Below are positions 1 through 54,255 of a DNA stretch of 64,000 bases, in pieces. A model generated the notes under the pieces. That model saw only the letters and a program-made list of their open reading frames with translations, did no database searches and was not told the DNA's origin. The stretch's first letter is position 1, and each line of letters opens with the position of its first letter. The position numbers and the translations under genes were made by a program. This DNA comes from Cetorhinus maximus (lineage: Eukaryota), in NCBI RefSeq assembly GCF_964194155.1, contig NC_135889.1, forward strand, positions 84,444,001 to 84,508,000, in the 5' to 3' direction.

Positions 1-2834
1 ACAACAGTGGAAAGGTTTTTGTAGACTGCTAATGCCATTTCTTCTGTCTCCGGTGCAGGTGAAATCTCTTCTGCTGACCTGAATATCATTGACAGGCTGT
101 CATTCCCCTCCAAGGATGAGGAAGAACCCTCAGACGAAGCACCATCACATCCTCTCTCTAGCCCAAGCAGCAGTGCAGATACCGGCATGCTGGCAGGAAT
201 TAGTGTGTCAGGACAAAGACAGGCACAATCTGGTGAGGCCACTTCACATTCGCATGTGCAGCTGCCAGAGAATATGGTGGAACAAGCCTTGGACAGCTGG
301 AGGAATGCCCGGGGTGATCCAGAGACTGATTTTGAGTTGAATGATGAGCTTCTGGAGTCAGCCATGAGGCAGCAGATGCTGGATGTCCAGCACGAGGTCT
401 GTGGGGATTTGGCGGATATACCAGAGGGGTTGCATGCTCTGGCCTGGACTGTGGAGGTGCCCATCCAGGCCATGTACACTGTGATCATCCACTCTTCAGA
501 GTGCCAAGCTTCCTTCATGGGCAGACTGGCAACTGTCCTGGAGGGGCAAACCAAACATACTGCAGACACAATCATGGGTATGCACTTCAACTTGCACTTT
601 ATCTCATCTTAGGGGCCCATAGCCAGGACAACAGGGGGACTAGGAGCATGGGCACCAAGCCAGCTCCTGGGACCTCATGAGAAGGCAGGGAGGACCACAT
701 GGACCCAGTGGCAAAGGATGAGCAGCAGCTTCCACCCTCTGGAAACACCTCTCAGGACACTTCTGATGGGGGCCGCGTCTCCTCCATCCATCTGCTGTTG
801 ACACAATCCTTGGCCAGTGCTGCAGTGACAGAAGCTCCTCCTGCCACTCAGCAGTACTTCTCGAGCGTGGCAGGCTGCTCAAGGCCTCTGACACATAGAG
901 GACCCCTGCCAAAGTCATCCAGGGTGAGGAAAGTGGATCAGTGCAACTGCAAGCAAGGTGGGGGAGCACTACACCAGAGCACGAGGAAATGCATCAAGAA
1001 AACTCCGCAGTAGTCACCAGGTGAGTCACGTGAGTCTGTTTTTTAAGGTTGTTAATATAATGTCTCATAGTTATTATGTAAGTAAACCCTAACCTCGCTG
1101 TCCCTCATGCAGAGATTATTTTAATATGTTATGCTGTTGAACCTCTTTAGGGAGATAGGCATTAGCTTTAATAATTTGAAGCAGGGCAGGATGCATTCAA
1201 TGTCAATAACTGGATAGAGTGAGTGTGTTGACAGGACAGTGACATGAGTTTCCCATTCCACGTGGAGCAAGGTTTGGACACATGCCACGAGACGAGAACT
1301 TCATAAACTATTGAAACCTCTGCCTTATCAAGGCGCCCCTGATGTCCCAGCCATCCAAGCAATCAAGTCCAGACCCTTCCACCTGATCGTCATCACGTAC
1401 CCTCACCTCATCCTCAGATGAATGGCCCCTATCTACCGTCCCCTCTTCCTCAAGGACATCCTCTCTCTGAATAGCGAGGTTATGGAGGGCGCAGCACACC
1501 ACGACACGTGATGGAGCATGCTGAAAGGTGTCTCCTTATCTGTTAAGGGATCTGGAGCTCCTTTTCAATAGCCCGATGATCTGTTCAACAATGGCCCTGG
1601 TGCTTCTGTGACTTTCATTGTGGTTTGGCACATGTGAGTTAAACAGAATGAAGGACTCAAATCTGCTGCCCAGGTACCTGGCACATACTTGCATGACCCA
1701 TCGATGATCACGGACAAGATGAACATTCAACAAGTGAAAGCCCTTCCTGTTAATAAAAGTGTAGGGCTGTCTAGCTGGTGCCTTTATGGTGATGTGCATG
1801 CAGTCAATGGCTCCCTGAACCCTGGGGAAACCTGCAATCGCCGTGAACCCTCTGGTTCTTTTCAGTTGTCTCTGGCCATCCATTGTGAATGAGGTGTAAT
1901 TTCCTGCCCTTCTGAACATAGCATCAGTGATGATACAGTGATGTGTAGCAGGCTGCGTTATGCCACTGAGGTCTCCATATGCTGCCTGAAAGGATCATGT
2001 CACAAGGAAATTGAGTGCAACAGTGACCTTGACAGCTACAAGCATTGGGTGACCCCCAATGCAGCTGGACGAAATTTCTCCTGCCAGCATGTCATAAAGG
2101 GATGTGACTGTGGCTCTTGGCAGCCTGAGCTACCTCTTGCATTGTGTCTTGGATATCTGCAGATAGCTCAGTCTCTGCCCATATACTCAAGGGCCTGCAT
2201 AAGTCCTTCTACGCCTCCCTTGGGGATTCATGGTGGTTTCCACCCTCATGCATCATCAGTGCATCCTGGACCTCCTGATGTGCCCCTCTTCCTCTCGCTC
2301 TCCTCCTCCTCACTGGAGGTTGTGTCTCCCACAGAGACCACAATCCTCATGTTTAGTCCAATTTGAAGGCTAAGATGATGATCAAGGTTTGAATGGACCT
2401 CTCTGCAGCAGGAATAAGATCTCTACACAAGGTCAGTTGGAAATAAAAACTTTGCTTCTTGTATGAAGTACTTCTAGCAGTCACAAAACTCCGAACTGCT
2501 AAGCTGAAACTCAGGGCTCAGCTGAACCCTTTAAACCTGCCCTAACAACCTGCCTAATAATAAAAATATAACCGGGACACGCACCTGGCGTGAGATACAT
2601 TCTACAAGTGATTTATCGCTCACGACATTTTACTCCAGTCATTTGTCCAATTAATGATCTTAAATACCCCATTTAATTTGAATAAAGCAGACTGGCACCT
2701 GATTTTCAGCCCCACCCAACTGATATATTATCCAGAACTGGCGTGATGATGTTGGGAACTTGACCTAATGTCATTGCACCCAATAATACGTTGGCCACGG
2801 GCGCATAACACTCCTGTTTTCGGAGCATATTATT
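1..2834. mobile_element. PIF/Harbinger DNA transposon A', partial (duplicate of the right part of the element at 44874-49034)
   Basis: Minus-strand transposase remnants (GFTAIAGFPRVQGAIDCMHI, FINRKGFHLLNVHLV, STRAIVEQIIGLLK, CCALHNLA) converge on a plus-strand last exon of the Myb/SANT-like partner gene; degenerate terminal repeat atattattctgc. Confidence 0.88.
1308..2350 (-). pseudogene. Harbinger (HARBI1-like DDE) transposase, frameshifted and internally deleted
   Basis: ATG at 2350 (MRIVVSVGDTTSSEEEES); ORF fragments 1536-1919 and 1308-1502 carry HARBI1-family motifs; the WLLGDxGY segment is missing. Confidence 0.85.
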
Positions 2835-2835
2835 C

Positions 2836-4060
2836 TGCATATATTTCACCTACCAAGTGTCTGCCCATTCCACCAGCCTGTCACTGTCCTCTTGAAGTGT
2901 ACCACTATCCTCTTTGCAGTTCACAATACTTCCAAGTTTTTTTGTCACCTGCAAGTTATAAAATTGTGCCCTGCATACCCAAATCTAGGTCATTCATGCA
3001 CATCAAGAAAAACAATGGTCCTAATACTGACCCCTGGGATATCGTACTCACGGAATCATATCTATTAGCTAACATCCGAGACTCTTCCATCACCAGGCCT
3101 GGTTAGGTCCTGCCCCATCACTGAGATAGACCCACCAGAGGTGGGGGCATAACAGCAGTAGCGCTGGGAGACCTCAACATTCACTCTCCATGAAGTCGCG
3201 GCTTGCAGATCAAACCTTGTGATCACTACCTACCACATATTCTGCCATTCAATGAGGCCAAGGCTGATCAGATACCTAACTCCATATGATCACCTTTATT
3301 CCATATTCCTAAATACATAATCTATCAATATCAGATTTAATATTAACAATTATTCTAAGTATCAATTGCTATTTGCAAAAGAGTTCCAAACTTCTACCCC
3401 TATTTGTGTATGGAAATGTTTCCTAACTTCATTCCTGAAGTGCCTGGTTCTAATTTTTAGGCTATGTCCCCTAGTTCTAGACTACACAATGAGTGAAAAT
3501 AGTTTCTCTCTGTTGAATTTCCATCCCTGATTGAATATTAATTTCCCTGGGATGTCTGGCATGCTATCCTCTTCCTTTACCCTAAATACTTACACCAAGT
3601 AATTATTCAACATGCCCACCATTTCCTTACTTTCATTTATAATACCACCGTCACCAGTTTACAAGGCACCCACATTGCTCATTACCACCCTCTTTTTTTT
3701 CTAATGGTAAAGAATTTTTGTGTGATTTTAATATGCCTTGAAAATTTCTTTTCACACTCCCTTCTTGTAACTCAAACTGTTCATCAACTTTTGTTGTTTT
3801 CTGCATAACTTAATATCAGGATCTACGCTTGTATTTTGGCATTTTTGTATGCTTTACCTTTTAGTTTTATGTTGCCCTTACTTCCTTTTTTTGTCCATGG
3901 CTGCTTTTTTGGCTAGTAGAGCTCTTGTCTCTTAGGGTATAAACTAGTCCTGTAACATTAAATTACTTGTGAACACCTCTTCTGTCTATTTTTACCCATT
4001 AATAGCTTTGTCCAGTTCACTTTGGACAGTCCCTGTCTCGACACACTGAAGTCAGAATTG
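2836..4060 (-). mobile_element. Decayed CR1-type LINE fragments
   Basis: Antisense CR1 RT and 3' sequence (cagtattaggaccattgttt, gaatgggcagacacttgg, actaggggacatagcctaaaaattagaaccaggcacttcaggaatgaagttaggaaacatttc). Confidence 0.6.
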
Positions 4061-4331
4061 CCTAAATCTTGAATTTTGGATTCTAGAACTGTAGCACACT
4101 GAGCCTTTAACAAGATCACCTTAATCAACCCAAATAAAGAATTGAATCTAGGACTGTTTTGGTTTGTACTCAGTATGGTGCATTTATCACATACTTGACG
4201 ATGAAGGGAATTGTACCAAAGAAAATTTCTTCAAATTTCTAACTACATGGGGGCAAACTGAGCTACACAGCAATATTCAGGTGAAAGTGCTATAGATCAT
4301 ATATGCATCCACCAACCAGTTGTAAAACATA

Positions 4332-5412
4332 TGCTACGATTCTTGGCCAGACCCCAAGTTGTTGGTGAGGCTCGGTTCAGGACCAATAACGTTTTTTTTT
4401 AAATTAGGCAAAGTTTGAGATTCAAGATACTTACTGAGTGAAGAAAGCCACAGGATTCCATGGGTTTAGAACAAACAAAGATAAACTTTACTATACAAGT
4501 TCAGAAAGGTAAACACTTTACAATATCTATCTTACACTCCAACATTCAGGGTAAGTGTGAAGTATGTGTGAATTAACAGGCAAACTGTGGTTGAACACAC
4601 CCCACTACAGAATAAATGCCAAATGCTACCAAAATAGATTCCATCAATTTCTCAACAACCTGCCCAGACATTCGTCACACTGAGTCAAACAATCTCACTG
4701 AAACTTCGTCTCTCTCATGAGGGTTCCCAATCTTCACTTCGAAGATCTTGCCTTGGAGTCTCTCCAACTCAGACAGTTTCAACAACGGCCCATCTCACAG
4801 GATTTCAATCTCACCCTCTGAGATTACATTCCCCTGGATTTCCGAGTTCACTCAAGCATCAATTTACAATTCAGATCTTTGGCGGTGTCAAGCAGGACAC
4901 CATTGCTCCAAAGGAGTACCTTTACCCCAGTGGCCCGCAGCACGGAGTCACCAACCTTCGGCTGCCTTCTCGGATCTTCAGGTCTTCTTATGAGCCCCCT
5001 TAGATTATCAGGGCTTCTCCCAAGCCCACTTCACTTAAAGTCTGCTCCCCACAGCCCTTTATTTAACTTGTAGCCTGTTTCTCTGATCCTTTCCTTTTAC
5101 TTAACTGATACCCGTTTCTGTCCCCTGTGTTTGTACCTTACCTGGGACTTCCTTTTGGGACCTGTCCCTGTCCCTCTCCCTGGGATACTTATTTTCTGAT
5201 TAAAACTGAATGACTGACTCAAATTGACTGTTCATTGACCCTTAAACTGATCTGGTGACCTTTCAAAACACTCAAAGAGGGTCCCACCCTTGTTACTAGG
5301 CAGAAATAAATGTAACAAACAGTGGAACATCCTGTACCTTAAATGTTACAATCTCTACAGACTATAAGCTTACATAGCACTCAGAGACACAGAATGAATG
5401 GATTTCATAACG
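4332..5412 (-). mobile_element. Probable solo LTR (~1.08 kb)
   Basis: Ends tgctacga...ttcataacg resemble a degenerate TG...CA terminal inverted repeat; flanks cata/tata resemble a 4-bp TSD; AGTAAA on the minus strand near the left end. Copy at 50523-51603. Confidence 0.45.
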
Positions 5413-6174
5413 TATAATACATGAATGTTAGGTGAAAAACACAAAACATGGCAGAGAATACATTTCCCCACCCCTCATACTAAATATTCCCATTTCTGAG
5501 AACGTTACATAATTTCTTCCAAAAGCAAATCTGGCTAACTTAATAAATAATATTTGAATATTGCAATTTGAAATGAAACATCCAAATTTTTTCAGCATTT
5601 AGAAATATCAGTCTGACAATTCTAATTATCAATGTGCTGCATGTTGCGTTTACAGTCTTCAAAATAGTCAGAAGAAAACATAATTACTGCTCTCAACTAT
5701 ATCACACCAAGGCATTGATTTAGTTAATGTTTTATTTCATATCCATGAAAATTCAACAAATAGTAAATTGCCTGATCAGGTTACTGTAAGTGTTATACTC
5801 ATCATTCTCCATTTTATGATGTTTTTTTAAAAACAGGTTATTTGTCTACTCTTAGCAATTGCTACATTTGTAATCCAAATATTGAGCTATGAAGGTCAGT
5901 TATTTCTTCTAGACCTAACTGCTAAGAGCATAATGATAATCTACATCATTCCTTCAATTTATATAAATATAAAAAGCACATTTGAACATTCTAATAAATG
6001 AAGTGCAACAGTAGCTAGCCCCCTGTGTTTGTACAGTGAATTTCCTAATGTACAATTATTGGGAAAAGAAATCTGGAAAAAAAACATTGGATATATTGCA
6101 CATGGTTTTATCTTCATCAGATTCACGCTAGCAAGTGATATAGTTGACTAGAAAGTGCCTGATAAGTTAACAGC

Positions 6175-6480
6175 CTTTAAATTTTTACAGGGCTTGACAA
6201 ATTAGATGCTAAGAGATTGACTCCCCTAGTTAACCATGCATCTCCCTAGTTAATCATTTAAGACTCAGATGGGACATTGCTTCACCCGAAGATTGTGAAT
6301 CTTTAGAGTTCTCTACCCCAGAGGGTATGTGGATGCTCAGCAGTTCAGTATATTTATGAAAAAGATCAATAGATTTTTGGATACTAAGGAAAATGGGGAT
6401 AGCACCGGAAAGTGGGGTCTAGAAAATCCATCATAATCTTATGGAGTAGTGGAACAGACTATTTCTGCTTTTAATTTTTT
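6175..6480 (+). mobile_element. CR1 LINE 3' fragment at the duplication breakpoint
   Basis: cagggcttgacaaattagatgc...gtgaatctttagagttctctaccccagagg...gatcaatagatttttggatactaagg matches other CR1 3' ends in the window (e.g. 63730-63990). Confidence 0.75.
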
Positions 6481-6639
6481 ACATTTATAAAAATGTAAAT
6501 AAAATCAGCTTACTCCAGAGTTTCTGAATTTACTTCAACAAATTTTGGATTAGAAAGAAAAGGAACAGTGATAAATTGGGCACATGAACTTCATACAGTG
6601 GTAACATACTCTGAAATAGGGGATGAGCACAGAATCTGG

Positions 6640-6870
6640 ATTGACACTTTGGCAGAATCCATCAGTTAGGTGTCACCTTTCAAAAGGGATCTTAAACTAA
6701 AGCCCAATCTGCTTGTTCAGGTGCACATTAAAGATCTCATGGCATTATTTGCAGAAGAGCGTTTCTGTCAAATGTCCAAAATTTACATCTGAACCTACAC
6801 CACTATAAAGCATTTTAGGACATCAGAGGACATGAAATGTGCTACATGAATGCAAATTCATTCTTTCACC
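6640..6870 (+). mobile_element. Old Deu-domain SINE (SacSINE1/AmnSINE-like) fragment
   Basis: cccaatctgcttgttcaggtgcacattaaagatctcatggcattatttgcagaagag followed by an L2-like tail (atgaaatgtgctacatgaatgcaaattcattcttt). Confidence 0.55.
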
Positions 6871-7140
6871 CACCCTTGACACTTGCTAGAACATTTGTTT
6901 CAAAGGCCTTTGAAATCAATAAAGATGCCTTGGATGCCAAAATAGTACTGGGGTTGGATTATGAATAACTGTTTCAGAAGCTCATTTATGGGAGGATACT
7001 AGAGCACTACACCTCACCTCAAGACATTTGTACTTTGGCTTTCTGATAAAGAAGTCAATTATGACCAACGTTTACCATCTTTGCACTACAAGGTAGCTAA
7101 CAAAGAGGAAACATTTGAGGCCTGCTTTATACAATTAGAT

Positions 7141-9858
7141 TTTTTTTTAATTCATTCACGGGATGTGGGCTTCACTGGCTGAGCCAGCATTTATTGCCCA
7201 TCCCTAGTTGCCCTTGAGAAGGTGGTGGTGAGCTGCCTTCTTGAACAGCTGCAGTCCATTTGATGCAGGAACACCCACAGTGCTGTTAGGGAGTGAGTTC
7301 CAGGATTTTGATCCAGCGATAGTAAAGGAATGGCGATATATTTCCTGGTCAGGATGATGAGAGACTTAGATGGGAACACCACAACCTGGAAGTTCCCCTC
7401 CATCTGCTGCCTTGTCCTTAGAGTGGTCGTGGGTTTGGAAGGTGCTGTAAAAGAGCCTTGATGAATTCCTGCAGTGTATCTTATAGATGGTACACACTGC
7501 TGCTACTATGCAATGGTGGCAGAGGGAGTGAATGTTTGTGGATGTGATGCCAATCAAGCAGGCTGCTTTGTCCTGAACAGTGTCCAGCTTCTTCAGTGTT
7601 GTGGGAGTTGCACTCATCCAGGCTAGCAGGGGGTATTCCATCACACTCCTGACTTGTACCTTGTAGGTGGTGGACAGGCTTTGGGGAGTCAGGTGGTGAG
7701 TTACTCGTCACACGATTCCTAGCCTCTGACCTGCTCATGCAGCCACAGTATTTATATGGCTAATCCAGTTCAGTTTCTGGTCAGGATGTTGACAGTGGGG
7801 GATTCAGTGATGGTAATGCCATTGAATGTCAAGGGGCGATGGTTGGATTCTCTCTTGTTGGAGATAGTTATTGCCTGACACTTGTGTGGCACAAATGTTA
7901 CTTGCCACTTGGCAGCCCAGGCCTGGATACTGTCCAGATCTTGCTGCATTTAGACACGGACTGCTTCAGTATCTGAGGAGTTGCGAATGGTGAGCATTGT
8001 GCAATCATCAGTGAACATCCCCACTTCTGACATTATGATAGAAGGAAGATCGTTGATGAAGCAGCTGAAGATGTTTGGGCCGAGGACACTGCCCTGAGGA
8101 ATTCTTGCAGCGATGTCCTGGAGCTGAGACGATTGACCTCCAACAACCACAACCATCTTCCTTTGTCCTAGGTAAGACTCCAACCAACAGAGAGTTTTCC
8201 CCCTGATTACCATTGACTCCAATTTTGTTAGGGTTCCTTGATGCCACACTCGGTCAAATGCTGCCTTGATGTCGGGGACAGTCACTCTCACCTCACCTCG
8301 GGAGTTCAGCTCGTTTGTCCATGTTTGAACCAAGGCTGTAAGGAGGTCAGGAGCTGAGTGGCCCTGGCAGAACCCAAACTGGGCAGTGAGCAGGTTATTG
8401 CTAAGCAAGTGCCGCTTGATAGCACTGTTGATGACTCCTTCCATTACTTTACTGATGATCGAGAGTAGACTGATGGGGCGGTAATTGGCCGGGTTGGATT
8501 TGTCCTGCTTTATGTGTACAGGACATATCTGGGCAATTTTCCACATAGCCGGGTAGATGCTAGTGTTGTAGCTGTACTGGAACAACTTGGCTAGGGGTGC
8601 CGCAAGTTCTGGAGTATAAGTCTTCAGTACTATTGCCGGGATATTGTCAGGGCCCATAGCCTTTGCAGTATCCAGTGCCTTCAGCTGTTTCTTGTGATCA
8701 CATGGAGCAAATCGAATTGGTTGATGACAGGCATCTGTGATGCTGGGGACCTCCAGAGGAGGCTGAGACGGATCATCCACTTGGCACTTCTCGCTGAAGA
8801 TTGCAGCAAATGCCTCAAACTTATCTTTTGTACTGATGTGCTGGGCTCTTCCATCATTGAGGATGGTGATATTTGTGGAGCCACCTCTTCCAGTGAGTTG
8901 ATTACTTGTCCACCACCATTCACGACTGGATGTGTCAGGACTGCAGAGCTTAGATCTGATCCGTTGGTTGTGGGATCGCTTAGCTCTGTCTATCACTTGC
9001 TGCTTATGCTGTTTGGCACGTAAGTAGTCCTGTGTTATAGCTTCACCAGGTTGACACCACATTTTTAGGTATGCCTGGTGTTGCTCCTGGCATGCACACC
9101 TGTACTCATCATTGAACCCGGGTTGATCCCCTGGCTTGATGGTCATGGTCGAGTGGGGGATATGCTGGGCCATGAGGTTACAGATTGTGTTTGAGTACAA
9201 TTCTGCTGCTGCTGATGGCCCACAGCGCCTAATGGATGCCCAGTCTTGTGTTGCTAGATCTGTTCGAAATCTATCCCATTTAGCACGGTAGTAGCGCCAC
9301 ACAACACGATGGAGGGGATCCGCAATGTGAAGGCAGGACTTCGTCTCCATAAGGACTGTGGAGCAGTCATTCCTACCAATACTGTCACGGACAGATTTGA
9401 GGATGAGGTCAAGTATGCTTTTCCCTCTTGTTGGTTCCCTCACCACCTGCTGCAGCCCCAGTCTAGCAGCTATGTCATTTAGGACTCGGCCAGCTCAGTC
9501 AGTAGTGGTGCCACTGAGCCACTCTTGGTGATGGATATTGAAGTCCCCCTACCAGAGTACATTCTGTGCCCTTGTCACCCTCAATGCTTCCTCCAACATA
9601 GGTGTTCAACATAGAGGAGCACTGAATCATCAGCTGAGGGAGAGCAGTACATGGTAATCCGCAGGGGGTTTCGTTGCCCAATTTTGACCTGATGCCATCA
9701 GACTTCATAGGGTGCAGCGTCAATGTTGAGGGCTCCCAGGGCAACTCCCTCCCGACTGTATACCACTGTGCTGTCACCTCTGCTGGGTCTGTCCTGCCAG
9801 TGGGACAAGACATACCCAGGGACGGTGATGGTGGCGTTTGGGATATTGACTGTAAAGT
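7141..9858 (-). mobile_element. 5'-truncated non-LTR retrotransposon (CR1-group LINE, endonuclease C-terminus + RT)
   Basis: ORF 7950-9446 has PTRGKSILDL, KAMGPDNIP, PANYRPISLLS, QFGF, DIKAAFDRVWH, PQGSVLGP and FTDD. The 3' tail gggcaataaatgctggc...cccacatccc.tgaatgaa + poly(A) lies at 7141-7210. Confidence 0.92.
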
Positions 9859-10518
9859 ATAAGATGAGATAGAAGAATATGGTATTATCCTGATAATTTC
9901 ATGTACAGCAACTTCAATGTTGTGAAAAAATAAAATTCCTGGAATAGTAATATGGAAACAGAATGCCAGATAGGTCACACAATTGTCCGTCACATCTTAA
10001 CTGCTGTAAGATGCAAAGCTGATACCAATTTTTTTTTGCAATCGTGCAAATCCAAGAAATCTATTTCAAATATTCCAATTTGGTCTCAAACAATGCAAAT
10101 TAAAAGACAGCATTCATCAAAAAAAAAATCAAAAATAGAAAAACCATGGGTGCAGTGGTACCACTTGCCTAGTTTGGTGGATCAGCTTCCCTACCAAAGG
10201 TGATGGAACTGTAGCCACCAATGCTTCAACTGGTGTAAGCTACCTCAAAATGCTATCCCACTGATATGAATAGATCCCACTATCTGAAAGTAACCGAACT
10301 GAAGGGTTTCCAGATAGTTCAAAATAGCCTTTCCAACCAGAACAAGTTCCTGTCAGTGATTGAAGCAGCAGTGTTGCTCGATTCATAAATGCAATGGAGG
10401 TTTCACATCATAATTACAGCTTACTGAATTCCATGGTGAGCTCGTTTCTCTCGATCATGATCACACAACCTATGTATTGATGGGTTGCCCTCTTTTCCAA
10501 ACACCAGGACGTACCTAC

Positions 10519-10649
10519 CTGTACTGCCAGCCCTTTCCTCTCCCCACCAGTTTGTGGACAGGCGCTTCTGCTTTCACATCAGGTTCAGGCACTTTCATGG
10601 AGGCTGAGGCTGAGGCTGAAGCTGTAACTGTCACGTCCCCTCCTTGCAT
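10519..10649 (-). CDS. OSBPL11: Oxysterol-binding protein-related protein 11, first coding exon
   Basis: Translates to MQGGDVTVTASASASASMKVPEPDVKAEAPVHKLVGRGKGWQY+AG|gtaggt. This matches the recalled vertebrate OSBPL11 N-terminus (MQGG...MKV.E...KGWQYS), has a phase-2 GT donor and lies in a CpG-rich island. No downstream exons were found in the window. Confidence 0.82.
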
Positions 10650-11000
10650 TGTTGAACGCCTGCAGCCGCTCCGGCCGGGGTCTCCGGGTTTACAGTGAGA
10701 CCGAGCCGGTGTGAGAGTAGGCCGGGGTTGGGGATGCGGCTGTGTTACAGGCTGCAGGATACCCAGCCAGCGCCTGCGCTCCAAGTGGCAATTAGCAGAG
10801 ACCCCCTGCCCACATTGTCACCCGCCAGACTGACCCGGAAGCTGTTAAAGGAACGGAAACCACTGGCGACAAGCGCCGCCTGTAGGCCGAGGTCACCTGT
10901 AGTGACGTCAGTTCAAAGCCATGTCTTCCGGGTTGCCAGCGAGGTGAGAGGGGAAACCCCTTTGTTAATGATGTCAAGTCGCCATATTTGTGCGGGGCAC
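10650..11000 (-). promoter_or_regulatory. CpG-rich housekeeping-type promoter/5'UTR of the OSBPL11-like gene
   Basis: Local CpG enrichment; perfect CRE palindrome TGACGTCA at 10903-10910; ETS-type CCGGAAG motifs (~10835 and antisense ~10925); YY1-type CGCCATATT at 10980-10988. Confidence 0.7.
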
Positions 11001-11089
11001 AGCCAACACAGATCTGACCTGACATCCATTCCTGCTGATGTTGGCCATGGCACATTTGCCTCTCTTTTGTTTCTGTACAGATAACAATC

Positions 11090-11830: not shown

Positions 11831-12116
11831 TAAAGTGTTTATAGCATTAATTATTTAAGGCTGATCTATTAATCATTGATAAAGAATTGGGAGGTTTATG
11901 TACATGGGAGGTATGTTGGTGTTAAAGTAATTTTTTATGTGATTTTAGTGAAAATGCTGAATTTTGTAATTTTTTCTTTGTATTTAAGAAATAACTGGGA
12001 TTCACATCTTGATTCCTTTAAAGCTTATTGAATTCCTATAAATATTACAACATACCATTTAGATAAATAATTTGTAATATTTCTTTCTGTTTTGCCATAG
12101 AAGCCAAACTTCATCA

Positions 12117-14020
12117 TAGTCCAGTCCCTTCCCACCTACATCCGTGATTCCTATGAAACCCTACATCATATCAACAATTTCCAGTTCCCTGGCCCCAACC
12201 ACCTCCTCTTCACCGTGAACGTCCAATCCCTCTACATCTCCATCCCCCACCGGCTTGGTCTGATGGCTCTCCGCTTCTTCCTCGAACAGAGGCCCGAACA
12301 ATCCCCATCCACCACTACTCTCCTCCGTTTGGCTGAACTTGTTCTCTCACTGAACAATTTCTCCTTAGACTCCTCTCACTTCCTTCAAATAAAAGGTGTG
12401 GCTATGGGTACCCGCATGGGTCCCTTTCATGCCTGTCCCTTTATGGGGTATGTGGAACATTCCTTGTTCCAGTCCTACTCCGGCCCCCTCCCACAACTCT
12501 TTCACCAGTACATCGATGATTGCTTCGGTGCTGCTTCATGCTCTCATCTGGACCTGGAAAAATTTATTAATTTTGCTTCCAATTTCCATCCCTTCATCAT
12601 TTTCACATGGTCCATCTCTGACACTTCCCTTCCCTTCCTTGACCTCTCTATCTCAATTTCTGGTGATAGACTGTCCACCAATATTCATTACAAGCCTACT
12701 GACTCCTACAGTTACCTCGACCACAGCTCCTCACACCCCGCTTCCTTTAAGGAGTCCATCCCATTCTCTCAGTTCCTTCGCCTCCGTCGCATCTGTTCTG
12801 ATGATGCCACTTTCAAAAACAGTTCCTCTGACATGTCTTCCTTCTTCCTTAACCGAGGTTTTCCACCCACGGTGGTTGACAGGGCCCTCAACCGTGTCCG
12901 GCCCATCTCCCACGCAACCGCCCTCACACCTTCCTCTCCCTCCCAGAACCGTGATAGGGTCCCCCTTGTCCTCACTTATCACCCCACCAGCCTCCGCATT
13001 CAAAGGATCATCCTCCGCCATTTCCGCCAACTCCAGCATGATGCCACCACCAAACACATCTTCCCTTCAGCCCCCCGGCGGCATTCCGCAGGGATCGTTC
13101 CCTCCGGGACACCCTGGTCCACTCCTCCATCACCCCCTACACCTCAATCCCCTCCCAAGGCACCTTCCCATGCAACCGCAGAAGGTGCAACACCTGCCCC
13201 TTTACTTCTCCTCTCCTCACCATCCAAGGGCCCAAACACTCCTTTCAAGTGAAGCAGCATTTCACTTGCACTTCCCTCAGTTTAGTCTACTGCATTCGTT
13301 GCTCCCAATGCGGTTTCCTCTACATTGGAGAAACCAAACGCGGACTGGGTGACTGCTTTGCGGAACACCTTCAGTCTGTCCGCAAGCATGACCCAGACCT
13401 CCCTGTCGCTTGCCATTTCAACACTCCACCCTGCTCTCATGCCCACATGTCCATCCTTGGCCTGCTGCATTGTTCCAGTGAAGCTCAACGCAAACTGGAG
13501 GAACAGCACCTCATCTTCCGACTAGGCACTTTATAGCCTTCTGGACTGAATATTGAGTTCAACAATTTTAGATCATGAACTCTCTCCTCCATCCTCACCC
13601 CCTTTCCGATCCCCCTTTTTTCCAATAATTTATATAGACTTTTCTTTTCCCACCTATTTCCATTATTTTTAAATGTATTTCCATGCATTGTTTTATCTCT
13701 ACCTTTTAGCCTATTTCGATCCCTTCCCCCTACCCCACCCCCACTAGGGCTATCTGTACCTTGCTCATCCTGCTTTCTACCCTTAATGTCACCTATTATC
13801 ACATTCCTTAGATAATATCACCACCTTCAACACCTCTTTGTCCTTTTGTCTATGACATCTTTTGGCTATCTCCACCTATCACTGGCCCTCTTTCCAGCTT
13901 TACTTGTCCCACCCCCCTTAAACCAGCTTATATTTCACCTCTTTTCTATTTTTCCTTAGTTCTGTTGAAGAGTCATATGGACTCGAAACGTTAACTGTGC
14001 TCCTCTCCGCAGATGCTGTC
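12117..14020 (+). mobile_element. Penelope-like retroelement, 5'-truncated (RT + GIY-YIG endonuclease + 3' repeat)
   Basis: ORF 12215-13252 has SLYISIPH, QIKGVAMGTRMGP, YIDDCF, LPFLD and YKPTDS. ORF 13249-13536 has VYCIRCSQCGFLYIGETKR (GIY-YIG) and HFN...EQHLIFRLGTL. Frameshift and stop present. Confidence 0.93.
13958..13996 (+). ncRNA. Minimal type I hammerhead ribozyme-like motif in the Penelope 3' repeat
   Basis: AGTT-CTGTTGA-A-GAGTC(ATATG)GACTC-GAAA-CG-TT-AACT: stem I, variant core, 5-bp stem II, GAAA and palindromic ACGT in helix III. Confidence 0.6.
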
Positions 14021-18330: not shown

Positions 18331-18374
18331 ATGCCTGATCGCAAGAAGATCTGCATCGTTGGATCCGGCAACTG
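18331..18374 (+). CDS. gpd1c: GPD1-family exon 1 ([15 protein letters not shown])
   Basis: ATG at 18331; donor TG|gtatgt, phase 2. Confidence 0.93.
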
Positions 18375-42244: not shown

Positions 42245-42985
42245 GCTGGTTAACAAGGACAATCAGGTGCCTCTAAATGCAAATATTTCCCATTCTCCCA
42301 ACATTCAAAATATATATTTTTTTATCTTTCCTACCAAATTGAATAACTTCACAACATTGTATTCCATCTGCCATCTTCTTGCCCAATCACTCAAACTGTC
42401 TCCATCCCTCTGCAGCCTCTTTGCATCCTTATCAACACTTACCGTCCCACCTAACTTTGCATCGTCAGCAAACTTTGATACATTAATTGGTCACCTCATC
42501 TAAGTCACTGATATAGACTGTAAATAGCTGAGGCCCAAGTACTGATCCTTGCAGTACCCTGGTACAGCCTGCAAACCCAAAAATTTCCAGTTTATTCCCA
42601 CTCTTCTCTGTCCAATAACCAATCCTCTATCCATGCTAATATATCACTCCCAATCCCCTGAGTCCATGAGGCAATCTCATTGAAACAATTTTTTTAAGGG
42701 ACTTGACAGGGTAGACAGTGCTTGGAGGATGGTTCCCCTGGATGGTAAGTCTAGAGCTCGGGGTCACAGGCTCAAAATAAAAAGAAGCTATTTAGGATTG
42801 AGATGAGAAATTTCTTCACTGTGAAATCTTTGTGAATTCCATACCCCAGAGAGCTATGTATACTCAGTTGTTGAGTATATTCAAAGCAGAGATCAATAGA
42901 TTTTTGCATATTAAGAGATGCGGGGGGGATAGTGTGGCAAGCTGGAGCTGAGGTAGATCAGCCATAATCCAATTGAATGGGAGAC
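42245..42985. mobile_element. CR1 LINE with inverted 5' part
   Basis: 42245-42660 is antisense CR1 RT (QGSVLGPQLF, FADD, WQMEYN); 42665-42985 is the sense CR1 3' end. Confidence 0.65.
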
Positions 42986-43013
42986 TCAAGACAGACTGAA
43001 ACTGTGAATCAGT

Positions 43014-43139: not shown

Positions 43140-43269
43140 AATGTTTCAGCCTGCTGAAAGTGCTTTTACTGTGGTCTTCACAGAACATTCAGGGATCCAT
43201 TTTATTACTGGAAAAATGTAGCAGCCTAGCAGGACAAAGTGAACCATATTTAAAATAATTTTTTTTTCT

Positions 43270-44130: not shown

Positions 44131-44271
44131 GCAAAATACAGCAAGAAAATCAGACACGTCTATGATCAATAATAGAGGCATTTTGAGGATAATCTCAGCC
44201 CAGTTGACCCTGCTAAGTTTTCTTCTTGATACCTAAATTGGGTTAGCTGTCCCACAGACTTGGCAGCCTGA

Positions 44272-44873
44272 CATAGAATCATAGATTGGTTACAGCACAG
44301 AAGGCCTTTTGACCTGCTATCTCCATGCCAGCTCTGTGTAACAGTTTCTGAGCTTGTGCCACTCCCCTGCCTTTTCCCTGTAGCCCTGCAAATATTTTTC
44401 TTCACAGATAATTATCCAATTCCTTTTTGAAAGCCACGATTTGATCTGTCTCCACCATATTCTCAGGCAGTGCATTCAATCCTAATTGTTGCATCAAACA
44501 GTTGTTCCTCATGTCGCCATTGGTTCTTTAGGTAATCAGTTTACATCGTGTGTCCTCTGGCTCTCGACCCTTGTGCCAATGGTAACAATTTCTCCCTATC
44601 TAGTCTGTCCAGACCCCTCATGATTTTGAACACCTCTATTAAATCTCTTCTCAACCTTCTCTTTTCTAAACAGCCCCAGCTTCACCAATCTATTTTCGCA
44701 ATTGAAGTCTCTCATTCCTAGAACCATTCTCATAAATATTTTCTACACCCTCTTTAATGTCTTCACATTCTTCCTAACTGTGCTGCTCAGAACTGGAGAC
44801 ATACTCCAGTTGAGCCAAAAGGGTTTTTTTTTAAAATAAGGTTCACCATAACTTACTTGCTTTTACACTCTAT
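44272..44873 (-). mobile_element. CR1 LINE 3' fragment, interrupted by Harbinger A
   Basis: catagaatcatag tail, ccactcccctgccttttccctgtagccctgc, ttcctcatgtcgcc; CR1 sequence resumes after 49035. Confidence 0.8.
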
Positions 44874-47800
44874 GGGCTGAATAATACATTCAGGCACGTG
44901 GGTGGGAGCCGCACCCGGAAGTGGGTGGCCTTCTGACTTCCGGGCTCGCCATCCTAACAGATAAAACGGCAAGTAGGCCAATTGGGAGTGGAGGGCGAGT
45001 TGAGGCCCCAAGGAAGTGAGGATTTCGCCCCATCAACCCGGGAGAGTGGGATGCCCGGCGTCAGAGCTTGTTGGGTCACGGCCACTCATTTAAAGGCTCA
45101 CCTGGCACAGGAAAGAATCAGGTGATGCAGAAAATGTATTCCACCAGCACAGTTCTTCAGCATTTGTGACTTGGAGATATTTGCAGGCCTTTAAGGTAAT
45201 TGTGCATCAGTTTAGGCTTTCTCTGACATGTTCATGGTTTGCCACTGATCGCAGGTGGCATTCAACTTGAACATTGACAAGTTTTCCTGACCTAAGCATA
45301 GAGAAGTTGTCCAGTTATTGCCTCCAGTTTCCCTCCAGAGATGTCCGAGGCAAGAGAGTGAGGGGAGAGGCAGGGGAGAAGGGTCAAATCAGCCCCTACG
45401 TTTGATGGCAAGACGCATAGCCTGGAAGGAGGTTGCTACAGAGGTCAGCAGCGTTGGGCTAGTGCGGCATACTTGAACGCAATGCCAGAGGAGGCTCAGT
45501 GACCTGAGGTCGGCCAGAGTGAGTAAGTCCTCAGTTTGTGTATGATTGTGACAAGAAGCTACAGGGTAGCGTTGCGAATGCTGGAGGCATGTGAATTTGT
45601 CAAAAGGTCCAAGGTAGCATGATGCAGCAAAGACATTGGTGTTTGCGCTGATGTCTGTGTGCACTTATTGCTTTGATACAGGTGGAGGGTGTGGGGTCGG
45701 GAGCCTGTGCAGATGAAGACAGTATCTTGGCAGCCAAGCATTGTGCTAATAATGCAGAGGTGGGATGACGTGAAATAACCTAACAATGTTAATGATTGCA
45801 ATGTTACACCAATTTTCAAGAGAAGTGTGCCCACAATGCACAAGAGAGAGGCCAAACTGGAGGGGGTGTGCCAGACCTGGTGATACTGTTTGAGGCCATT
45901 CGAGGAGGTTCTCATGCTCTCCGTGTCTGAATCCTCCAGGTTGATTGGCAGAGGTGAGATTGAAGGAAGGCATGGGTCTGGTGAGTTTACATATGACTGA
46001 AATCAGAAGAACGGGGGATAGGTTAAGTGGGAGGTGGATTGATGTTTTGCAGGATTCAAAGAAAGATATGAATCTTAGTCCGAGGCTAAAACCCAGGGTA
46101 ACTTCATAGCCAAAAGCGTAAGTGTGTATAGTGTTTGCATTGTCACATCATGGCACACATGACTGTAAAGTTGCTCAGCACTGTGACCTTGCACAACAGT
46201 GGAAAGGTTTTTGTAGACTGCTAATGCCATTTCTTCTGTCTCCGGTGCAGGTGAAATCTCTTCTGCTGACCTGAATATCATTGACAGGCTGTCATTCCCC
46301 TCCAAGGATGAGGAAGAACCCTCAGACGAAGCACCATCACATCCTCTCTCTAGCCCAAGCAGCAGTGCAGATACCGGCATGCTGGCAGGAATTAGTGTGT
46401 CAGGACAAAGACAGGCACAATCTGGTGAGGCCACTTCACATTCGCATGTGCAGCTGCCAGAGAATATGGTGGAACAAGCCTTGGACAGCTGGAGGAATGC
46501 CCGGGGTGATCCAGAGACTGATTTTGAGTTGAATGATGAGCTTCTGGAGTCAGCCATGAGGCAGCAGATGCTGGATGTCCAGCACGAGGTCTGTGGGGAT
46601 TTGGCGGATATACCAGAGGGGTTGCATGCTCTGGCCTGGACTGTGGAGGTGCCCATCCAGGCCATGTGCGCTGTGATCATCCACTCTTCAGAGTGCCAAG
46701 CTTCCTTCATGGGCAGACTGGCAACTGTCCTGGAGGGGCAAACCAAACATACTGCAGACACAATCATGGGTATGCACTTCAACTTGCACTTTATCTCATC
46801 TTAGGGGCCCATAGCCAGGACAACAGGGGGACTAGGAGCATGGGCACCAAGCCAGCTCCTGGGACCTCATGAGAAGGCAGGGAGGACCACATGGACCCAG
46901 TGGCAAAGGATGAGCAGCAGCTTCCACCCTCTGGAAACACCTCTCAGGACACTTCTGATGGGGGCCGCGTCTCCTCCATCCATCTGCTGTTGACACAATC
47001 CTTGGCCAGTGCTGCAGTGACAGAAGCTCCTCCTGCCACTCAGCAGTACTTCTCGAGCGTGGCAGGCTGCTCAAGGCCTCTGACACATAGAGGACACCTG
47101 CCAAAGTCATCCAGGGTGAGGAAAGTGGATCAGTGCAACTGCAAGCAAGGTGGGGGAGCACTACACCAGAGCACGAGGAAATGCATCAAGAAAACTCCGC
47201 AGTAGTCACCAGGTGAGTCACGTGAGTCTGTTTTTTAAGGTTGTTAATATAATGTCTCATAGTTATTATGTAAGTAAACCCTAACCTCGCTGTCCCTCAT
47301 GCAGAGATTATTTTAATATGTTATGCTGTTGAACCTCTTTAGGGAGATAGGCATTAGCTTTAATAATTTGAAGCAGGGCAGGATGCATTCAATGTCAATA
47401 ACTGGATAGAGTGAGTGTGTTGACAGGACAGTGACATGAGTTTCCCATTCCACGTGGAGCAAGGTTTGGACACATGCCACGAGGCGAGAACTTCATAAAC
47501 TATTGAAACCTCTGCCTTATCAAGGCGTCCCTGATGTCCCAGCCATCCAAGCAATCAAGTCCAGACCCTTCCACCTGATCGTCATCACGTACCCTCACCT
47601 CATCCTCATATGAATGGCCCCTATCTACCGTCCCCTCTTCCTCAAGGACATCCTCTCTCTGAATAGCGAGGTTATGGAGGGCGCAGCACACCACGACACG
47701 TGATGGAGCATGCTGAAAGGTGTCTCCTTATCTGTTAAGGGATCTGGAGCTCCTTTTCAATAGCCCGATGATCTGTTCAACAATGGCCCTGGTGCTTCTG

Positions 47801-49034
47801 TGACTTTCATTGTGGTTTGGCACATGTGAGTTAAACAGAATGAAGGACTCAAATCTGCTGCCCAGGTACCTGGCACATACTTGCATGACCCATCGATGAT
47901 CACGGACAAGATGAACATTCAACAAGTGAAAGCCCTTCCTGTTAATAAAAGTGTAGGGCTGTCTAGCTGGAGCCTTTATGGTGATGTGCATGCAGTCAAT
48001 GGCTCCCTGAACCCTGGGGAAACCTGCAATCGCCGTGAACCCTCTGGTTCTTTTCAGTTGTCTCTGGCCATCCATTGTGAATGAGGTGTAATTTCCTGCC
48101 CTTCTGAACATAGCATCAGTGATGATACAGTGATGTGTAGCAGGCTGCGTTATGCCACTGAGGTCTCCATATGCTGCCTGAAAGGATCATGTCACAAAGA
48201 AATTGAGTGCAACAGTGACCTTGACAGCTACAAGCATTGGGTGACCCCCAATGCAGCTGGACGAAATTTCCCCTGCCAGCATGTCATAAAGGGATGTGAC
48301 TGTGGCTCTTGGCAGCCTGAGCTACCTCTTGCATTGTGTCTTGGATATCTGCAGATAGCTCAGTCTCTGCCCATATACTCAAGGGCCTACATAAGTCCTT
48401 CAACGCCTCCCTTGGGGATTCATGGTGGTTTCCACCCTCATGCATCATCAGTGCATCCTGGACCTCCTGATGTGCCCCTCTTCCTCTCGCTCTCCTCCTC
48501 CTCACTGGAGGTTGTGTCTCCCACAGAGACCACAATCCTCATGTTTAGTCCAATTTGAAGGCTAAGATGATGAACAAGGTTTGAATGGACCTCTCTGCAG
48601 GAGGAATAAGACCTCTACATAAGGTCAGTTGGAAATACAAACTTTGCTTCTTGTATGAAGTACTTCTAGCAGTCACAAAACTCCGAACTGCTAAGCTGAA
48701 ACTCAGGGCTCAGCTGAACCCTTTAAACCTGCCCTAACAACCTGCCTAATAATAAAAATATAAACGGGAAACGCACCTGGCGTGAGATACATTCTACAAG
48801 TGTTTTATTGCTCACGACATTTTACTCCAGTCATTTGCCCAATTAATGATCTTAAATACCCCATTTAATTTGAATAAAGCAGACTGGCTCCTGATTTTTA
48901 GCCCCACCCAACTGCCATATTATCCAGAACTGGCGTGATGATGTTGGGAACTTGACCTAATGTCATTGCACCCAATAATACGTTGGCCACGGGCGCATAA
49001 CACTCCTGTTTTCGGAGCATATTATTCTGCATAT
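44874..49034. mobile_element. PIF/Harbinger DNA transposon A (Myb/SANT-like gene +, transposase -, convergent)
   Basis: Left TIR gggctgaataatac, degenerate right end atattattctgcat. Myb-like AWKEVATEVSSVGLVRHT*TQCQRRLSDL followed by |gtgagt (~45518); transposase at 47500-48542. Confidence 0.88.
47500..48542 (-). pseudogene. Harbinger transposase, frameshifted and internally deleted
   Basis: Same motifs and same lesions as 1308-2350. Confidence 0.85.
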
Positions 49035-50522
49035 ATTTCACCTACCAAGTGTCTGCCCATTCCACCAGCCTGTCACTGTCCTCTTGAAGTGTACCACTAT
49101 CCTCTTTGCAGTTCACAATACTTCCAAGTTTTTTGTCACTTGCAATTTATAAAATTGTGCCCTGCATACCCAAATCTAGGTCATTCATGCTCATCAAGAA
49201 AAACAATGGTCCTAATACTGACCCCTGGGATATCGTACTCACGGAATCATATCTATTAGCTAACATCCAAGACTCTTCCATCACCAGGCCTGGTTAGGTC
49301 CTACTCCATCACTGAGATAGACCCACCAGAGGTGGGGGCATAACAGCAGTAGCGCTGGGAGACCTCAACATTCACTCTCCATGAAGTCGCGGCTTGCAGA
49401 TCAAACCTTGTGATCACTACCTACCACATATTCTGCCATTCAATGAGGCCAAGGCTGATCAGATACCTAACTCCATATGATCACCTTTACTCCATATTCT
49501 TAAATACATAATCTATCAATATCAGATATAATATTAACAATTATTCTAAGTATCAATTGCTATTTGCAAAAGAGTTCCAAACTTCTACCCCTATTTGTGT
49601 ATGGAAATGTTTCCTAACTTCATTCCTGAAGTGCCTGGTTCTAATTTTTAGGCTATGTCCCCTAGTCCTAGACTCCACAATGAGTAAAAATAGTTTCTCT
49701 CTGTTGAATTTCCATCCCTGATTGAATATTAATTTCCCTGGGATGTCTGGCATGCTATCCTCTTCCTTTACCCTAAATACTTACACCAAGTAATTATTCA
49801 ACATGCCCACCATTTCCTTACTTACATTTATAATACCACCGTTACCAGTTTACAAGGCACCCACATTGCTCATTACCACCCTCTTTTTTTTCTAATGGTA
49901 AAGAATTTTTGTGTGATTTTAATATGCCTTGAAAGTTTCTTTTCACACTCCCTTCTTGTAACTCAAACTGTTCATCAACTTTTGTTGTTTTCTGCATAAC
50001 TTAATATCAGGATCTACGCTTGTATTTTGGCATTTTTGTATGCTTTACCTTTTAGTTTTATGTTGCCCTTACTTCCTTTTTTTGTCCATGGCTGCTTTTT
50101 TGGCTAGTAGAGATCTTGTCTCTTAGGGTATAAACTAGTCCTGTAACATTAAATTACTTGTGAACACCTCTTCTGTCTATTTTTACCCATTAATAGCTTT
50201 GTCCAGTTCACTTTGGACAGTCCCTGTCTCGACACACTGAAGTCAGAATTGCCTAAATCTTGAATTTTGGATTCTAGAACTGTAGCACACTGAGCCTTTA
50301 ACAAGATCACCTTAATCAACCCAAATAAAGAATTGAATCTAGGACTGTTTTGGTTTGTACTCAGTATGGTGCATTTATCACATACTTGACGATGAAGGGA
50401 ATTGTACCAAAGAAAATTTCTTCAAATTTCTAACTACATGGGGGCAAACTGAGCTACACAGCAATATTCAGATGAAAGTGCTTTAGATCATATATGCATC
50501 CACCAACCAGTTGTAAAACATA

Positions 50523-51603
50523 TGCTACGATTCTTGGCCAGACCCCAAGTTGTTGGTGAGGCTCGGTTCAGGACTAATAACGTTTTTTTTTAAAGTAGGC
50601 AAAGTTTGAGATTCAAGATACTTACTGAGTGAAGAAAGCCACAGGATTCCATGGGTTTAGAACAAACAAAGATAAACTTTACTATACAAGTTCAGAAAGG
50701 TAAACACTTTACAATATCTATCTTACACTCCAACATTCAGGGTAAGTGTGAAGTATGTGTGAATTAACAGGCAAACTGTGGTTGAACACACCCCACTACA
50801 GAATAAATGCCAAATGCTACCAAAATAGATTCCATCAATTTCTCAACAACCTGCCCAGACATTCGTCACACTGAGTCAAACAATCTCACTGAAACTTCGT
50901 CTCTCTCATGAGGGTTCCCAATCTTCACTTCGAAGATCTTGCTTTGAAGTCTCTCCAACTCAGACAGTTTCAACAACGGCCCATCTCACAGGATTTCAAT
51001 CTCACCCTCTGAGATTACATTCCCCTGGATTTCCGAGTTCACTCAAGCATCAATTTACAATTCAGATCTTTGGCGGTGTCAAGCAGGACACCATTGCTCC
51101 AAAGGAGTACCTTTACCCCAGTGGCCCGCAGCACGGAGTCACCAACCTTCGGCTGCCTTCTCGGATCTTCAGGTCTTCTTATGAGCCCCCTTAGATTATC
51201 AGGGCTTCTCCCAAGCCCACTTCACTTAAAGTCTGCTCCCCACAGCCCTTTATTTAACTTGTAGCCTGTTTCTCTGATCCTTTCCTTTTACTTAACTGGT
51301 ACCCGTTTCTGTCCCCTGTGTTTGTACCTTACCTGGGACTTCCTTTTGGGACCTGTCCCTGTCCCTCTCCCTGGGATACTTATTTTCTGATTAAAACTGA
51401 ATGACTGACTCAAATTGACTGTTCATTGACCCTTGAACTGATCTGGTGACCTTTCAAAACACTCAAAGAGGGTCCCACCCTTGTTACTAGGCAGAAATAA
51501 ATGTAACAAACAGTGGAACATCCTGTACCTTAAATGTTACAATCTCTACAGACTATAAGCTTACATAGCACTCAGAGACACAGAATGAATGGATTTCATA
51601 ACG
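50523..51603 (-). mobile_element. Probable solo LTR (duplicate of 4332-5412)
   Basis: Same termini and flanks as the first copy. Confidence 0.45.
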
Positions 51604-54255
51604 TATAATACATGTATGTTAGGTGAAAAACACAAAACATGGCAGAGAATACAACATTTCCCCACCCCTCATACTAAATATTCCCATTTCTGAGAACGTT
51701 ACATAATTTCTTCCAAAAGCAAATCTGGCTAACTTAATAAATAATATTTGAATATTGCAATTTGAAATGAAACATCCAAATTTTTTCAGCATTTAGAAAT
51801 ATCAGTCTGACAATTCTAATTATCAATGTGCTGCATGTTGCGTTTACAGTCTTCAAAATAGTCAGAAGAAAACATAATTACTGCTCTCAACTATATCACA
51901 CCAAGGCATTGATTTAGTTAATGTTTTATTTCATATCCATGAAAATTCAACAAATAGTAAATTGCCTGATCAGGTTACTGTAAGTGTTATACTCATCATT
52001 CTCCATTTTACGATGTTTTTTAAAAACAGGTTATTTGTCTACTCTTAGCAATTGCTACATTTGTAATCCAAATATTGAGCTATGAAGGTCAGTTATTTCT
52101 TCTAGACCTAACTGCTAAGAGCATAATGATAATCTACATCATTCCTTCAATTTATATAAATATAAAAAGCACATTTGAACATTCTAATAAATGAAGTGCA
52201 ACAGTAGCTAGCCCCCTGTGTTTGTACAGTGAATTTCCTAATATACAATTATTGGGAAAAAAAATCTGGAAAAAAAACATTGGATATATTGCACATGGTT
52301 TTATCTTCATCAGATTCACGCTAGCAAGTGATATAGTTGACTAGAAAGTGCCTGATAAGTTAACAGCATAATGAACAGAGAAGATTTTTATCCAGAATAT
52401 TTTAAGTATTGAAACATGAGTTTAGCCATGCTAATAATTCATAACCTGAGATAAATTGATTACATTCTTGAGACCTACATTCAAAACACTCTCACAACAA
52501 AATTTAATCTGCATGAAAATTCTCTCTAACAAGATTCAAGTAACTGTTAAACAGTAAAACAGTAATATATTTTATGTCTACATAGACTGCCTCCCTAAAA
52601 CTGAACCAACAAATACACAAAGCATATCTATGAACAGGATGCACTGCACCAGAGTAAAGCCATGGTCACTTTTTATTCATAGGGTCAAATAAAATTATTT
52701 GGTCTACATTATCATCTTGTGAAATCCGTGGCATGGTGCCAAATGAACCACAGAGAAGTCTGAAAGATTACAGTTGACAGTAGTTTTGTGTCACAAACAT
52801 TTTTGCTTTTTTTTTGATAGAATGTACAACTGCAATGCAACATGAAAACTGTTATCTTAACAGCAGTAATTCTCAAGGTCTAATAATTCTTCACATAGCT
52901 AATCTGACCTATCTGCTCTGTAATAGAACAGTTTTTGATTTGGCCCCCCAAATAATTTCTGACCTATTAGAAAAAGAAACCATAACTGACTAACACTAAT
53001 ATGTGCCCGCAAAACATGTATTGCACAATCATAGTTCTTTAATATTCACACTCTATCACAAAGACGAAGAGATACCTAATTGGAAACTTGTTCTCCCTGT
53101 TCAGGATGGTTATCTGACCAGTATAATCTTAGTAATTTTATGGTTAAATGATCACAGATAAAATTAACTTACATAGACTGCTTTGGCTTCTATAGGTCCA
53201 CTGTAAAAGGGAGCTATCTGGTTTAATTTTACCTTAAATAAGCTTTTAAAAAACTGACAAAAATAAATGTTTTTAATTCAGCTTTTCCTCCACCTGTTCT
53301 CAAAGTGCCAATGTCTTGTTGGGTCACAGGTGTTAGGCAGCCATCAATAACTCACACAAATGACAACTCTTCATTTACAAGCCTTGCCTGTTAGTATTCA
53401 CAATAATTCAATCTTGTGGAGCATCGCAACTGAGCCTGATCCAACTTGGGACCTTTTTTCCCCCAGCGATTCAATTGAGCCATTAAGGGATCCAAGTGGA
53501 AAAGTTATCCACTAGTCTTTAATATTTTATTTTAATCCCTTGTCAATTTTTTTCTTTTAAGTAATGTTGTATACCCAACTTCTATGGTACCCAGAATTAT
53601 GGGCAATTTTACATCTGATTACAGACTATACAGTGCAAGGAAAACAGAAAAGGGTTACAAAATGGGCAACATTACTTATTGTTAAACATGACATCCAAGG
53701 TAAACTTTTTTACTTAGAACAATAATCAAATTTCTGATGTTCACAGAATTATTAATACAGAAATTCTACCAATCATTAACAATTGTGCAGGATTTTTTGA
53801 TAAAACTGAGGCACTAAAAGTAAAACAAGCAACACAAGTGCAAATAGTGACGGTAGGATTGACATGCTCGTGAAGTCTACTCGACAATTTGTGCCAGTCA
53901 GTACCATTGATGTATGACGTTCAAACACTGAAAATCACTGAGCATATTCAGGGAATCAGAGGAGAGATTACATTTAGCTCATTTCACTATGAAGAGGTGT
54001 AGAGGTAGTTCAGTTCTGTTCAATACACAAAGTACAGTATTAGCACCCTTGTCATTTAACATAGTCATGGTTTCTTGGAGTGTTTAATCAACTGAGATTA
54101 AAAGTTGCAATCAGGCCTTGTACCTACCATGAAGACAGAATTCAGACCTTTTGGTAAAAGCACCTTGTAGATTCCTTTGCAGAATGATGCTTAACTGTGG
54201 CAGTGTTCAAACTGTACCACTTTAGTACATCCTTTAATGGGATAGTGCACTGAAG

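Follow-up and report, generated by a model that had tools for sequence, protein, structure and literature searches.

A probable head-to-tail duplication of about 46 kb spanning gpd1c and the first exon of OSBPL11 in the basking shark

We analysed a stretch of 64,000 nucleotides (nt) from the basking shark, Cetorhinus maximus (assembly GCF_964194155.1, contig NC_135889.1, positions 84,444,001 to 84,508,000 of the forward strand; hereafter the window), which holds a complete gene of the GPD1 family, gpd1c, the first coding exon of OSBPL11, and a long direct repeat. Our data indicate that one duplication event probably occurred at this locus in the lineage of the basking shark, copying ~46 kb head to tail, and that the sampled animal most likely bears it on both chromosomes. 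The full downstream copy of the unit would occupy 6175-52367 (46,193 bp), with its right end given by self-comparison and its left end placed by the break at 6174 and by the doubled contig depth to the right of it; the 3' end of the upstream copy fills 1-6174 and runs off the left edge of the window. Such an event would have copied OSBPL11 exon 1 and all of gpd1c, along with the divergent promoter region of the latter.

The repeat pair and the two gpd1c genes

In a BLASTN self-comparison of the window, 1-6174 matched 46193-52367, i.e., the 3' end of the downstream unit copy, at 99.06% identity over 6,177 columns (53 mismatches, 3 gap openings, E = 0), and global alignment of the pair gave 32 transitions, 21 transversions, and 3 indels. 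The second-ranked self match was a pair of long interspersed nuclear elements (LINEs) at 86%. With 6.17 kb visible at 99.06%, the repeat falls within the definition of a segmental duplication (direct copies of >1 kb that are >90% identical). It comprises part of a decayed PIF/Harbinger-type transposon, recognized by the Pfam domain DDE_Tnp_4, together with AT-rich unique DNA, of which 5900-6174 has its partner copy as the sole match within the window. Because the pair spans both the DDE_Tnp_4 element and this unmatched AT-rich DNA, it is not one mobile element, and a single transposon copy as its source was ruled out by the unique sequence at the 3' end. The edge of the repeat is abrupt, with 0 leading bases common to both copies past 6174 and 52367, and the window contains no N, so the junction at 6174 lies in sequence without an assembly gap. 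An earlier, sequence-only reading of this DNA had proposed by eye that these intervals match closely, that the match is more than one transposon, and that the first copy breaks at 6174, and our comparisons bear out all three points. Differences between the copies are unevenly spread (3, 5, 22, 12, 7, and 7 per successive 1,029 bp; chi-square p = 1e-4), a pattern that could stem from gene conversion between them.

The gpd1c gene lies on the plus strand at 18331-40676, with exons 1 to 4 at 18331-18374, 25380-25557, 28672-28812, and 36597-36735, and exons 5 to 8 at 37660-37772, 39267-39500, 40054-40160, and 40580-40676. It encodes an intact, stop-free product of 350 amino acids (aa) that is 100% identical to C. 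maximus XP_078408470.1 and 98.6% identical to the white shark protein. Intron 5 has a GC donor (37772-37778; a GC-AG intron), which is used in the annotation, since splicing there yields the RefSeq protein. The sequence-only reading had placed this gene, as well as OSBPL11 exon 1 (10649-10519, minus strand), where we find them. Its assignment to the GPD1 family also stands, as both gpd1c copies carry PF01210 and PF07479, but the paralogue is gpd1c by tree and primers and not canonical GPD1. More specifically, in a tree of 47 rows (none of them mammalian GPD1L), the window protein clustered with five teleost gpd1c rows at a support of 100/99, apart from mammalian GPD1 and from gpd1b. Likewise, both catshark gpd1c primers matched with 1 mismatch each, versus 6 to 9 mismatches for all four gpd1 and gpd1l primers (primers from PMC11136554). 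The residues K121, K205, and R270, which correspond to the key residues Lys120, Lys204, and Arg269 of human GPD1 (PMC11148179), are retained in both copies, as are N206, D261, T265, and N271. On this sequence basis, both copies probably make an enzyme that interconverts dihydroxyacetone phosphate and glycerol-3-phosphate.

RefSeq holds a second full-length basking-shark protein, XP_078408492.1 (350 aa), which is 99.1% alike to XP_078408470.1 and supplies the additional GPD1-family gene that had been predicted. Both proteins and OSBPL11 are annotated on sequence of equal length (129,010,711), and in the tree the two proteins are sisters to the exclusion of the white shark (support 99/86), which has one gpd1c gene. 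Among 21 other chondrichthyan species, none had a pair of distinct, non-isoform proteins on the same contig, in a survey that read protein clusters and from which identical duplicates would be hidden. XP_078408492.1 differs at A251V, V263L, and E286D, all of which are derived states when set against the aligned sequences of other sharks: L263 and D286 occur in 0 of 187 homologues and V251 in 15 of them (homologues with at least 70% identity, for which 189 of 207 family rows were kept, minus the two basking-shark copies). We infer that the second gene sits immediately upstream of the window, together with a second OSBPL11 exon 1. The order of RefSeq accessions (gpd1c 470, OSBPL11 480-482, gpd1c 492) is compatible with a nested layout, although such an order is unreliable for position.

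The basking-shark gene thus resembles the gpd1c described in other vertebrates (zebrafish and trout in PMC7413064; catshark in PMC11136554), with which it shares the clade supported at 100/99. It adjoins OSBPL11 as in other sharks, as judged from equal sequence lengths and neighbouring accessions, and in Chiloscyllium the locus tags of the two genes are adjacent. It differs in being present as two near-identical copies. Trout also has two gpd1c genes, but these are 94.8% alike and come from whole-genome duplication rather than from a tandem event (PMC7413064).

Read contigs and the weighing of alternatives

We aligned to 2850-7140 the contigs of three runs of organism A (X1, X3, and X4; one sample), along with those of a relative, organism B, for which one run was used. 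In all three organism A runs, a contig terminated exactly at 6174 with no leftover letters (contigs of 806, 426, and 840 nt). A 1,511-nt contig of organism B aligned up to 6174 and then continued for 671 letters that no longer matched; with a false duplication, the contigs of organism A would be expected to run on in this way. There are no GATC or GANTC sites within 6140-6210. The junction itself can be placed at 6174-6189: homology stops and the contigs end at 6174, and the contigs resume at 6189, so that the true first base of the unit lies between 6175 and 6189 and up to 14 bases may have been inserted or altered there.

Contig depth was likewise raised in organism A. Relative to repeat copies at other loci, the median depth of the stretch was 1.54 in X1 (7 vs 11 values, one contig with 9 mismatches excluded), 1.87 in X3 (8 vs 15 values), and 1.89 in X4 (8 vs 14 values), compared with 1.04 in organism B (8 vs 4 values, two values omitted). 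Were the duplication present on both chromosomes, the ratio should be ~1.75, given that one-quarter of 31-mers overlap a difference. The increase was seen on both sides of the break at 6174. Contigs specific to one version had depths near the single-locus baseline (53 and 63 in X3 and 60, 75, and 97 in X4, against baselines of 73 and 87, respectively), and shared contigs had about twice that depth. Beyond the break, on its right side, ~950 bp contain at least 11 variants, 8 of them shared with organism B, and depth is still near double; these two observations together indicate that a second, more ancestral version of the sequence from 6175 onward exists. Over 6400-7110, the window version has 8 listed changes that are absent from organism B and the other version has ~2, which is possibly not a real asymmetry; to the left of the junction, the listed changes split 6 to 3 between versions. 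At positions 4281 and 4292, which are 11 nt apart and fall within one 31-mer, X1 carries the letters of copy 1, X4 those of copy 2, and X3 a third combination. As a diploid locus allows two haplotypes, the third combination points to more than one diploid locus. Finally, the divergence between copies (0.86%) is three times the heterozygosity reported for C. maximus (0.27%; PMC13044535; Poisson p = 1e-12). The sequence-only reading had named read depth and this comparison as checks against a false haplotype copy, and both came out on the side of a real duplication, with depth increased 1.54- to 1.89-fold instead of halved and the copies more different than alleles; the fork at 6174 and the third haplotype point the same way, all within one sample.

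Several points weigh against a real duplication with the layout proposed here. The three organism A runs represent a single sample, possibly the very animal that was assembled. No piece bridging 6174|6175 was present among the pieces listed (32 of 10,237, and 24 of 1,298 loose ends), where a bridging contig would measure only ~60-75 nt, so that the fork at 6174 supports the junction indirectly. Contig depth is a rough measure and not a copy number, its baseline consists of 15 of 107 joint rows selected by the tool, and the organism B ratio, with a baseline of only 4 values, falls to ~0.9 when one of the omitted values, 30.1, is included. The third haplotype comes from one contig of one run and covers 1 of ~8 groups of close variants. 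The published assembly has 5.5% duplicated benchmarking universal single-copy orthologues (BUSCOs), and its haplotype 1 (3994 Mb) is 8% longer than the k-mer estimate of 3680 Mb (PMC13044535). Because false duplications favour heterozygous regions (PMC9516828) and the assembly shows such an excess, the divergence argument is weak when taken alone. The amino-acid changes fall 3:0 on the second gpd1c copy, which is not significant (two-sided binomial p = 0.25), and the sequence of the upstream copy lies beyond the window edge, so that the position of the second gene is deduced rather than read.

Three other explanations have to be set beside the duplication. That two alleles were assembled in series and annotated as two genes is the least probable of them: the BUSCO excess, the assembly length above the k-mer estimate, and the lack of a bridging contig among the pieces listed would fit it, as would the finding that duplicates labelled 'like' by NCBI are sometimes false (PMC9516828), but false duplications are mostly separated by gaps and have haploid depth (PMC9516828), and neither mark is present here, although the depth baseline is approximate. 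The junction is gapless, contigs fork at exactly 6174 in three of three runs, depth is raised, and a third haplotype occurs. It is improbable, though the least so of the three, that the tandem duplication is real yet confined to a single chromosome or polymorphic, i.e., a copy-number variant, perhaps formed between two old and divergent haplotypes. The single sample, the X1 ratio of 1.54 near the heterozygous expectation, and the uneven divergence along the repeat, which could reflect a haplotype mosaic, would all suit this explanation; the ratios in X3 and X4, version-specific contigs at depths near the baseline rather than half of it, and a copy divergence three times the heterozygosity argue against it.

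We also regard as very improbable a more complex arrangement, with a second gpd1c placed elsewhere than right beside the first, an upstream unit of another length or content, or a copy number above two. The upstream sequence lies outside the window, the contigs resume at 6189 instead of 6175, and some depths reach 2.4 times the baseline (207 in X4, in a repeat-rich part), all of which leave room for this arrangement. Set against it, doubling is apparent on either side of the junction, homology reaches the window edge, and RefSeq lists exactly two proteins. Among the near-identical 'like' genes of the basking-shark annotation, this pair is thus probably no assembly artefact.

Origin, age, and possible consequences of the duplication

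In a single ~46 kb duplication, one break would have occurred after the stop codon of the gene downstream, at a distance of ~1.9 kb, and the second inside OSBPL11 intron 1, where a decayed LINE fragment lies. To the left of the junction is unique DNA, and to its right the decayed 3' fragment of a LINE (6181-6388 matches LINE fragments at 42790, 63722, and 63809 at 73-80%). Unequal crossing-over between repeats (non-allelic homologous recombination) found no support, as the visible breakpoint sides have no common repeat and share 0 bases past the break; this comparison covered the visible sides, the native left flank of 6175 being out of view. Since these sides share no repeat, a non-homologous event is likelier than crossing-over, and the sequence suggests that end joining or replication template switching more likely produced the duplication. 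No tandem array was found at the junction. The inverted LINE pair at 7141-9264 (within the unit) and 61208-63282 (outside it), 84-86% alike and with RVT_1 matches, was discarded as a cause, being too divergent and too distant from the breaks.

In the 8 listed pieces, 91 of 3,136 sites (2.9%) distinguish organism B from the window, and the divergence between copies is 0.30 of this distance, or ~0.22 after heterozygosity is subtracted. These ratios indicate that the duplication postdates the split from organism B and the white shark and predates present allelic variation. The label 'recent' given in the sequence-only reading therefore holds relative to the split from organism B, but not relative to allelic variation, which the copies exceed threefold in divergence. 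The sole measured shark mutation rate is 7e-10 per generation, in the epaulette shark (PMC10587355). Because sharks mutate slowly, the duplication is probably old in years. An absolute date of 4-6 million generations, obtained from 7e-10 per generation, was rejected as too long for a slow-breeding shark given its life history, and we kept the relative age.

The OSBPL11 exon in the window (10519-10649, minus strand) comprises 43 codons with a GT donor, is accompanied by a promoter region, and is 100% identical to the N terminus of basking-shark OSBPL11 (isoforms X1 to X3). All three RefSeq models begin with this sequence, and it cannot discriminate between the exon-1 copies. The exon has a longer Ala-Ser run than its white shark counterpart (+4 residues). 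In the layout that we propose, the junction would sever the window exon 1 from exon 2 and leave it as an extra, distal first exon. OSBPL11 would then be intact, with its reading frame kept and two first exons, between which the upstream gpd1c copy would be nested in antisense orientation, and the distal exon 1 could splice onto exon 2 across that copy. True tandem duplications such as that of ACR (PMC9516828) are alike in having (here presumably) head-to-tail copies on the same contig, gapless and >90% identical, and in copying a whole gene and promoter with part of a neighbour, so that we see no difference in kind. In comparison with such cases, the partial copy here is a first exon, so that one gpd1c copy would come to lie, antisense, within an OSBPL11 intron 1 made longer by the event. 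As tandem duplications confined to one lineage are frequent, the basking-shark event is ordinary in kind.

As to the fate of the copies, the protein of the window gpd1c would have stayed unchanged since the duplication, the other copy having gained three changes. The default reading of these sequences is one constrained copy and one tolerated copy that may be under weaker constraint, and relaxed selection on the second copy fits the pattern of amino-acid changes at least as well as a dosage increase, which would require both copies to be expressed. V263L lies two residues from both D261 and T265, in the substrate-binding region. It is conceivable, though unlikely, that all basking sharks carry the duplicate and have long kept it because more or differently tuned gpd1c increases flux through the glycerol-3-phosphate shuttle or the synthesis of glycerolipids, that V263L contributes to the tuning, and that transcription from the duplicated OSBPL11 promoter, antisense across the copy, gives it an expression pattern of its own. 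The basking shark has a large, oily liver. If true, this proposal would support an adaptive reading in terms of heat in muscle (shuttle flux) or liver oil (glycerolipid synthesis), and the shark would have taken a copy-number route to a gene that bears endothermy-linked substitutions in bluefin tunas. Basking sharks are reported to have regionally endothermic traits and probable red-muscle endothermy (PMC10645071), and GPD1b and GPD1c carry bluefin-specific substitutions and are listed as endothermy candidates (PMC6340463; repeated in PMC12190012). The paralogue and the pathway, the glycerol-3-phosphate shuttle, are the same in tuna and shark, but the tuna evidence is amino-acid substitution (PMC6340463) and the shark evidence is copy number. 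Because a single gene suffices in the white shark, itself a regional endotherm, the duplication is unnecessary for lamniform endothermy, which reduces the weight of the comparison. Both gpd1c genes are already annotated in RefSeq, and the duplication itself is apparently undescribed: we found no paper on duplication of shark gpd1c or GPD1 in the full-text literature (subscription journals and supplements lay outside the search). What we offer is a specific, checked candidate, a duplicate that looks real, intact, and old relative to allelic variation, in a gene linked to warm-bodiedness in tunas, the effect of the extra basking-shark copy being conjectural.

Other features of the window

Outside the unit, the final three coding exons of a minus-strand gene lie at 54256-59778, as open reading exons with AG/GT ends. 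This gene is putatively LMLN, by likeness to the human protein; Pfam and Atlas searches with its short exons gave no match. Its stop codon is located ~1.9 kb to the right of the unit end (52367), and two AATAAA sites on the minus strand (52672 and 53526) are both beyond the unit. Within and after gpd1c, we noted three distinct decayed PIF/Harbinger-type elements at ~20250-24350, 29540-35370, and 44870-49030, with edges set by eye. DDE_Tnp_4 was matched in the first and third (in the third via its copy at 1536-1991) and a Myb/SANT domain in the first; the single open reading frame (ORF) searched from the second had no Pfam match. We looked for terminal inverted repeats of these elements and saw none that was convincing. 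Intron 3 of gpd1c contains, in a Harbinger-like element, an inverted duplication of 252 bp (31001-31252 and 31723-31975) whose arms are 94% alike and 470 bp apart. Two long, overlapping ORFs are present at 12101-13536, of which the one searched had no Pfam match; they may belong to an element resembling a Penelope-like reverse transcriptase element.

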